The notes beneath the pieces are model-generated. The model did not search any database and was not told the DNA's origin. It worked only from the letters and a program-made list of their open reading frames with translations. The position numbers and the translations under genes are program-made. Shown here piece after piece: positions 8,807 through 10,061 of a stretch of DNA of 64,000 bases. The stretch lies in assembly GCF_055900595.2 (NCBI RefSeq), contig NZ_CM148325.1; one strand, 5' to 3'. Numbering within the stretch: position 1 is the stretch's first letter; every line of letters starts with the position of its first letter.

Positions 8807-9232
8807 TCACCGGTTCTGGTGCAGAAGTTGCAGTTGGTGCAGGGTACGGATATCCTCCCTGGCCTGTTCGATACAGGGCAACAATGCTGCCGAATCCGTT
8901 TTATCCTCATCGTTGTCGAAAATAATTCCGGACCCGCAGTCGATATTGTCCTGCAGCCACGCAATGAGGATATCCAGCGCTGTTTCAGTGGTTAATGGCA
9001 TCACGCTCTGTATCACTGTATTGTCTTCCGGCAACTGATGAGAGCTGGCAGAAGTCGCCGGTGTTTCGGTAGCGTCACGTTCATCCACCACGCGGAGTGA
9101 ATAACCGTATTCAGCGACCTTGTTAATCAGTTCAGTGAGCTCAACACCATCAATGTCAACGACAATTCGCCCTATATTCAGTGCCTGTACGTTAACGCTG
9201 TCTGCTTCCAATGTCAGGGCCAGTTTCATCAT
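8807..9232 (-). CDS. YeeW-like protein downstream of the toxin gene
   Basis: 141 aa; start overlaps the cbtA stop by 4 bp; position matches yeeW of CP4-44. Confidence 0.5.
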
Positions 9233-9603
9233 TTCGCCTCCGGATACTTACCCAGGGTAATGTTATTTACCGTTCTGTAATTGTCGCGGGTCATCAGGCC
9301 GGTCGCCCTGCGAGCCCGGAGGATATCGATGCTGTTTATTAACTGAGAGCGGGTACAGGCGCTGAATCCCGGCTGGTCGGTACGCACCAGCGCGTATTTT
9401 TCCACGAGAAAGTTCACCGCATCACACAGTGAAATGCCTGCCTCAATATGCAGCTCAATCACGCGTTCATCCGCGAACGGTGTGTCATTCAGCGTAAGGC
9501 TGTAATGCTGGTCCAGTAACCGGGTGAGCAGTGTCTGCCAGATGGTGACGGGAGACGGGCAACACGATGCCTCCCGTACATGCGTGTCGGGTAATGTTTT
9601 CAT
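9229..9603 (-). CDS. cbtA: Type IV toxin-antitoxin toxin CbtA/YeeV family (cytoskeleton-binding toxin)
   Basis: 124 aa; sequence matches the YeeV/YkfI/YpjF family from memory; immediately downstream of cbeA. Confidence 0.85.
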
Positions 9604-9692
9604 AATGAAGATTTTCCTGATATGCAGAGATAAAAAATGGGACAGTGGCGTGGTGAAAACACCAGGCCGGAGCAGAAGATTATTCTGATGAT

Positions 9693-10061
9693 TTACTTTT
9701 TCGTTTCGGGCGTCGGATAAACAGCCAGATAAACGTAACCACAGGAGCCGAGGGTGTCGGCTTCACAGGTCAGCCCCTTCGCATACAGTGTCACGGTATG
9801 CTGATGGCGGGGATTCAGTTCACCGCTGGTGAGCATGAGCTCCAGTTGTTTCATCGGCAGCGGAAAGGCCTGGTCCGGATGGTACGCATCCGCATCTCTG
9901 AACCGGCCTCTGATACCGGCACGGTCGGCAAGGTAATGCAACCGGTTACCCTCCTGCACCAGACGTGCCCCGAAACAGGGCGTCACGGTGCAGGGCAGTC
10001 CCCACCAGAGGCGGTCGTGATTGTCGTCGTGATGCGTTGTCCCGGGGAGTGTGTCTGACAC
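9693..10061 (-). CDS. cbeA: Antitoxin CbeA/YeeU family
   Basis: Matches YeeU from SDTLPGTT onward; start assigned to GTG at 10059-10061 (reverse complement of cac) rather than the longer track ORF reaching 10181. Confidence 0.8.

Follow-up and report, generated by a model that had tools for sequence, protein, structure and literature searches.

The 64,000-nt stretch of DNA that was analysed (hereafter the window) carries on its minus strand two adjacent, co-oriented genes, the antitoxin gene cbeA followed by the toxin gene cbtA, which reside in a CP4-like island with RadC/JAB, DUF987 and DUF5983 neighbours. The pair and its immediate surroundings comprise the following features:

8807-9232, minus strand: yeeW-type ORF of 141 aa, a DUF5983 N-terminal part joined to DUF957 (Pfam DUF5983_N)
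9229-9603, minus strand: cbtA (yeeV-type) toxin CDS, 124 aa, ATG start (PF06755, WP_000854697.1)
9604-9692, minus strand: cbeA-cbtA spacer of 89 nt, collinear with the 88-nt spacer of K-12
9693-10061, minus strand: cbeA (yeeU-type) antitoxin CDS, 122 aa, GTG start (PF06154, 2H28/2INW, PGAP WP_001354195.1)
10059-10061, minus strand: GTG initiation codon of cbeA, as judged from the sequence and homologous loci
10069-10073, minus strand: Shine-Dalgarno sequence GAGGA, 7 nt upstream of the cbeA GTG; SD:anti-SD duplex of -6.0 kcal/mol
10062-10181, minus strand: spurious 40-codon 5' extension of cbeA, made up of 49 intergenic nt, the upstream gene's stop and 68 nt of its coding sequence, read out of frame
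10111-10755, minus strand: 214-aa gene, in RefSeq a hypothetical protein, DUF8835 or 'antitoxin of toxin-antitoxin stability system'; the spurious cbeA extension runs into its 3' end
10774-10995, minus strand: yeeT-like DUF987 gene (PF06174, E 9.7e-40)

The toxin matches the Pfam family CbtA_toxin (PF06755) over its full length (E 4.6e-62; 207.4 bits, with the cutoff at 25; all of profile positions 1-112). Similarly, the antitoxin is matched by CbeA_antitoxin (PF06154; E 8.8e-52; 174.3 bits, with the cutoff at 27; positions 2-100 of the 101 in the profile), the match covering residues 59-157 of the longest open reading frame, which correspond to residues 18-116 of the 122-aa form. A search of CbeA against PDB sequences returned E. 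coli YeeU (2H28, E 2.5e-73), 2INW (E 2e-74) and, at about 3e-40, 2JN7 and 2EA9; E-values this low rule out a chance match. Thus, the CbtA/CbeA pair that the first-pass annotation had placed at 9229-10061 is exact in its coordinates, and both families are confirmed by Pfam and PDB sequence matches. Neither protein matched an NCBIfam profile, and no second copy of CbeA or CbtA occurs in the window. Both ORFs are of full length, with start, Shine-Dalgarno sequence and stop intact. No Rfam RNA family was found within or beside the pair, and a promoter and terminator scan of 8700-11200 gave sites no more numerous than in shuffled sequence, with the minus strand upstream of cbeA devoid of any site.

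Downstream of the pair, the start of the yeeW-type ORF overlaps the stop of cbtA by 4 nt; PGAP annotates this ORF as a partial DUF5983 pseudogene and a DUF957 CDS. The genes downstream of the pair are decayed, the DUF4942 gene (7937-8722, minus strand) being annotated as frameshifted, and the end of the island adjoins ynjB (6540-7709). Upstream, the 214-aa gene had no match in the Pfam and NCBIfam copies used; many E. coli islands contain it, and in others (L007-L009) only a 3' remnant of it is left, fused after yeeT.

The question of where cbeA is initiated arises since the longest ORF through the gene, 9693-10181, begins at an ATG (10179-10181) and would encode 162 aa, 40 codons more than the form that starts at the GTG, whose product opens with (V/M)SDTLPG. 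The first-pass annotation had noted that the likeness to YeeU begins only at SDTLPG. In the alignments to both 2H28 and 2INW, residue 42 of the long form pairs with residue 2 of the chain, the serine directly following the GTG, and the aligned span of the 122-aa protein comprises residues 2-121 for 2H28 and 2-119 for 2INW. The minus-strand codon at the position where the match begins is a GTG, as had been read, and the figure of 40 unrelated residues for the longer ORF proved exact: the extension aligns to nothing in either structure and is without a match among CbeA homologues. Both crystallised constructs, of which 2INW is annotated as a 'putative structural protein', share the N-terminus M-SDTLPG with CbeA of the window.

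Annotation of identical DNA points in the same direction. Many complete E. coli chromosomes, the majority of them from isolates of poultry, swine and humans, match the 2.4 kb around the pair at 100% identity, and in one of these, strain SFE8 (NZ_CP051219), PGAP assigns the antitoxin a CDS of 369 nt that corresponds exactly to 9693-10061 and starts at the GTG. We further compared the start region in 10 homologous loci of 88-96% identity that represent three upstream contexts, a sample from the roughly 13,000 homologous places in complete E. coli genomes. The codon at the cbeA start position is GTG in nine of these, including K-12, and ATG in the remaining one (L005); an exchange between GTG and ATG is expected at a true initiation codon. 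Four of the ten (K-12, strain 536, an O157:H7 strain and L011) have a stop in this frame 27 nt further upstream and lack any start codon on the way to the cbeA start, so that in those four loci only this codon preserves the conserved N-terminus. The Shine-Dalgarno sequence, (G/A)AGGA at a distance of 7 nt, is retained in 11 of 11 loci, and the N-terminal MSD motif is common to all loci compared. Computed pairing to the 3' end of the 16S rRNA is stronger for the GTG (-6.0 kcal/mol) than for the in-frame ATGs at -120 (-2.5 kcal/mol) and -108 (-0.9 kcal/mol). Alignment with CbeA homologues, which had been proposed as a check, was carried out on 30 sequences from Escherichia, Enterobacter, Citrobacter and Salmonella and places the N-terminus at the same column in 29 and three residues earlier in one. 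At least 1000 public contigs encode exactly this 122-aa protein. In contrast, a collection of about 15 billion proteins does not contain the 162-aa form, and the 158-aa form starting at the -108 ATG is found on two contigs. Longer versions of CbeA in the databases (142-174 aa) carry extensions that are mutually unrelated and vary with the upstream context.

The earlier preference for the GTG as the more plausible start is hence borne out by PGAP, by K-12, by the nine GTG and one ATG codons at this position, by the Shine-Dalgarno energies and by the absence of the 162-aa form, all of which agree. The predicted start of cbeA at GTG 10059-10061 is supported by comparison, by annotation and by the structure constructs. 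The supplements of the TRAINSPOTTER N-terminomics study contain none of the entries cbeA, yeeU, cbtA or b2004, a literature search judged by title and abstract yielded nothing relevant on the start codon of cbeA/cbtA or a GTG of yeeU/yeeV, and ribosome-profiling or N-terminal proteomic evidence for cbeA was found for no strain. A 'GUGUG/AUGUG overlapping initiation' motif (PMC9841429) was considered for cbeA and rejected, as the start here reads GUGUC.

Two other positions of the start have to be weighed. Translation of the antitoxin, or of a minor proteoform, might begin at one of the upstream ATGs, either at -120 (10179-10181) or at -108 (10167-10169), giving 162 or 158 aa. The frame is indeed open from 10181 to the GTG, some automatic gene callers do give versions of 154-174 aa, and all six loci of this upstream type, five with the 214-aa gene and one with only its 3' remnant, have the -108 ATG. 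However, this ATG lies within the conserved GAT GAG (Asp-Glu) codons of the 214-aa gene, which account for its presence, and the -120 ATG exists in the window allele only: the other five loci of this upstream type all have ACG or ACA instead, and the ATG arose when GAC became GAT, a silent exchange (Asp) in the overlapping 214-aa gene. In addition, the extension frame is closed by a stop between the positions of the two ATGs in one locus (L006), quite apart from the stop at -27 in the four loci mentioned above. Substitutions in the overlap are 3 synonymous to 13 non-synonymous when read in the frame of the extension, including loss of the -120 ATG and one stop codon, and 8 to 8 when read in that of the upstream gene; despite the small numbers, the trend is clear. 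With the weak Shine-Dalgarno pairing of both ATGs, the lack of any match of the extension to a CbeA homologue or structure and the missing 162-aa form also arguing against it, an upstream start is very unlikely. The 162-aa ORF is artefactual: it arises when the frame is traced back to its first ATG, which lies out of frame within the preceding gene. Conversely, an internal codon downstream of the GTG, for instance the in-frame GTG of Val26 or Met70, might serve as the start and yield a shorter antitoxin. In favour of this, the first 17 residues are variable and are missing from YfjZ and YafW of K-12, and the Pfam model begins only at residue 18 of the 122-aa protein. Yet there is no in-frame ATG before Met70, a start at Val26 would delete the invariant residues W20-G21-L22, the MSD N-terminus and the Shine-Dalgarno sequence upstream of it are kept in all loci, and the crystallised constructs 2H28 and 2INW begin at the N-terminus derived from the GTG. 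An internal start can practically be dismissed.

We thus regard 9229-10061, with a probability of about 95%, as an intact two-gene CbeA/CbtA (YeeU/YeeV) type IV toxin-antitoxin module of an E. coli CP4-44-like island, in which the antitoxin starts at the GTG at 10059-10061. Translation of cbeA from this codon would be guided by the GAGGA sequence 7 nt upstream and would yield the 122-aa CbeA. As judged from the K-12 orthologues, CbtA would bind both FtsZ and MreB and so block cell division and elongation, while CbeA would not bind to the toxin but counter it through bundling and stabilisation of the FtsZ and MreB polymers. For CbtA, direct and genetically separable interactions with FtsZ and MreB have been described (PMC5624674). 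The statement in PMC3827094 that cites Masuda et al. 2012 presents CbeA/YeeU as the founding type IV system, in which the toxin is antagonised without binding, via bundling of FtsZ and MreB polymers.

The allele in the window raises the question of whether both proteins still act in this way. CbeA deviates from the family consensus by L62P, L69P, P11H, P18L and S55R, and it differs at all five positions from 2H28 and 2INW, which have Leu62, Leu69, Pro11, Pro18 and Ser55. Residues Leu62 and Leu69 are conserved at 90% or above among the 30 homologues, and both are proline in the window protein. L62P is shared with further alleles that are abundant (for instance P0005 and P0026); L69P was seen in no other allele in the 30-sequence alignment or in the 10 loci compared, and among the database proteins fetched it was seen only in P0051, a partial copy of the same allele. 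An AlphaFold2 model based on the 30-sequence alignment is poor (pLDDT 51.9) and can serve as a rough guide to secondary structure only; in it, residues 62 and 69 fall into a helical segment spanning residues 56-79. In CbtA of the window, Phe65 is kept and Cys14-Cys15 take the place of Ser14-Arg15 of the K-12 protein. In K-12 CbtA, F65 is needed for the interaction with FtsZ and R15 for that with MreB, and R15C abolishes binding to MreB; YpjF and YkfI with their natural C15 nevertheless act on MreB (PMC5624674). Arg15, which is thus absent from the window CbtA, is not family-defining.

It might therefore be asked whether the ORFs are intact but the pair is functionally decayed, that is, whether this CbeA allele with its five substitutions is inactive and the module a relic in a degrading island, the toxin being kept in check by paralogous antitoxins or by not being expressed. 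The proline substitutions at two conserved leucine positions, one of them confined to the window allele and its partial copy and both lying within the helical segment of the low-confidence model, are in line with such a view, as are the damaged neighbours, namely the frameshifted DUF4942 gene, the truncated DUF5983 and the RadC gene split by an IS element. Paralogues would be available as well, since E. coli genomes have a median of three homologous places. On the other hand, the presence of the exact 122-aa allele on so many contigs indicates that it is common and stably maintained, both reading frames retain their full length along with start, Shine-Dalgarno sequence and stop, and L62P recurs in other abundant alleles. 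In addition, P69 would belong, according to the model (pLDDT 52), to the initial turn of a helix with P67 at its start, where proline is usually tolerated. Decay of the module is therefore improbable, and a loss of CbeA function in particular appears unlikely because the exact protein is so widespread. A functional shift of the pair is improbable as well; in such a variant, a toxin with a CbtA-type body and Cys14-Cys15 might mainly block FtsZ and division and the L62P/L69P CbeA might be co-adapted or weakened. A minor N-terminally extended proteoform of CbeA could arise from the conserved -108 ATG, but this is less likely than such a shift.

The wider island is heavily damaged by IS elements. 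The RadC/JAB (yeeS-like) gene upstream of the pair is split by an IS3-family element within 11058-12795 (minus strand), its C-terminal part being located at 11058-11384 and its N-terminal part at 12643-12795; orfA of the element spans 12275-12622 and orfB 11409-12155. Strain SFE8, which is otherwise identical in the RadC region, has an intact gene of 477 nt, so that the window is longer by about 1261 bp. No exact match to this insertion in RadC was found among the complete E. coli genomes of the collection, the best match being 98.3% in three pieces. An Rfam match to 'isrC' (12468-12590) falls inside the IS3-family element. Two inverted copies of IS10, one at 18642-19912 and the other within 35765-38050, each encode a transposase of 402 aa and carry a match to RNA-OUT. 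The second copy interrupts iucB, of which an N-terminal fragment (35765-36115) and a C-terminal GNAT fragment (37385-38050) remain, and the interrupted gene lies between iucA (33977-35764) and iucC, iucD and iutA (38050-43349); the aerobactin operon thus looks to be disrupted. A group II intron is present within 55778-57391 (minus strand), with the Rfam match Intron_gpII at 55778-55864 and an adjacent 413-aa reverse-transcriptase ORF at 56150-57391, and a match to the sRNA STnc490 occurs at 50749-50870. Additional transposases belong to the Mutator family (29266-30426) or are ISL3-type fragments (31529-32284 and 43681-44385). The window as a whole is a mosaic island heavily loaded with IS elements, and it contains no tRNA gene.

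The pair itself is an ordinary, already catalogued E. coli CbeA/CbtA, and its GTG start is already known, being present in RefSeq, in the reference annotation of K-12 and in the crystallised constructs. The main value of the analysis is annotation hygiene: where the frame happens to stay open into the preceding gene, choosing the longest ORF makes a gene too long, and comparative data correct this. It might be speculated that C15 of CbtA together with L62P/L69P of CbeA could be used to probe, at little cost, the toxin-MreB and antitoxin-polymer interfaces.

Among known systems, the closest counterpart considered is the pair of the K-12 prophage CP4-44 (b2004/b2005), each protein of which is 90% identical to that of the window at equal lengths of 122 and 124 aa. 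CbeA differs from its K-12 counterpart at 12 positions, L62P and L69P among them, and the differences in CbtA, including R15 to C, are nearly all located within residues 6-35. The order of antitoxin and toxin is the same, the spacer measures 88 nt in K-12 versus 89 nt in the window, and cbeA of K-12 (b2004) has the homologous GTG start with a conserved Shine-Dalgarno sequence and spacing, as is seen from its context, CTGTAAGGATTTTATCGTGTCAGAC. In both islands DUF987 (yeeT) and RadC/JAB (yeeS) genes reside upstream and a yeeW-type gene downstream of the pair; however, the island of the window adjoins ynjB and is not located at the CP4-44 site, and it has the 214-aa gene between yeeT and cbeA that CP4-44 lacks. 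It is this gene that opened the long spurious ORF. The two other K-12 pairs, YfjZ/YpjF of CP4-57 and YafW/YkfI of CP4-6, are more distant, with only 59-66% identity to the window pair, but they belong to the same Pfam families and share its gene order and its island neighbours (antirestriction, RadC/JAB and DUF987). Their spacers are 20 nt in length as opposed to 89 nt in the window, while both toxins, like the CbtA described here, have a cysteine at position 15. The antitoxins YfjZ and YafW are proteins of 105 aa that start at an ATG and are devoid of the 17-residue N-terminal tail, in contrast to the 122-aa CbeA of the window with its GTG start.
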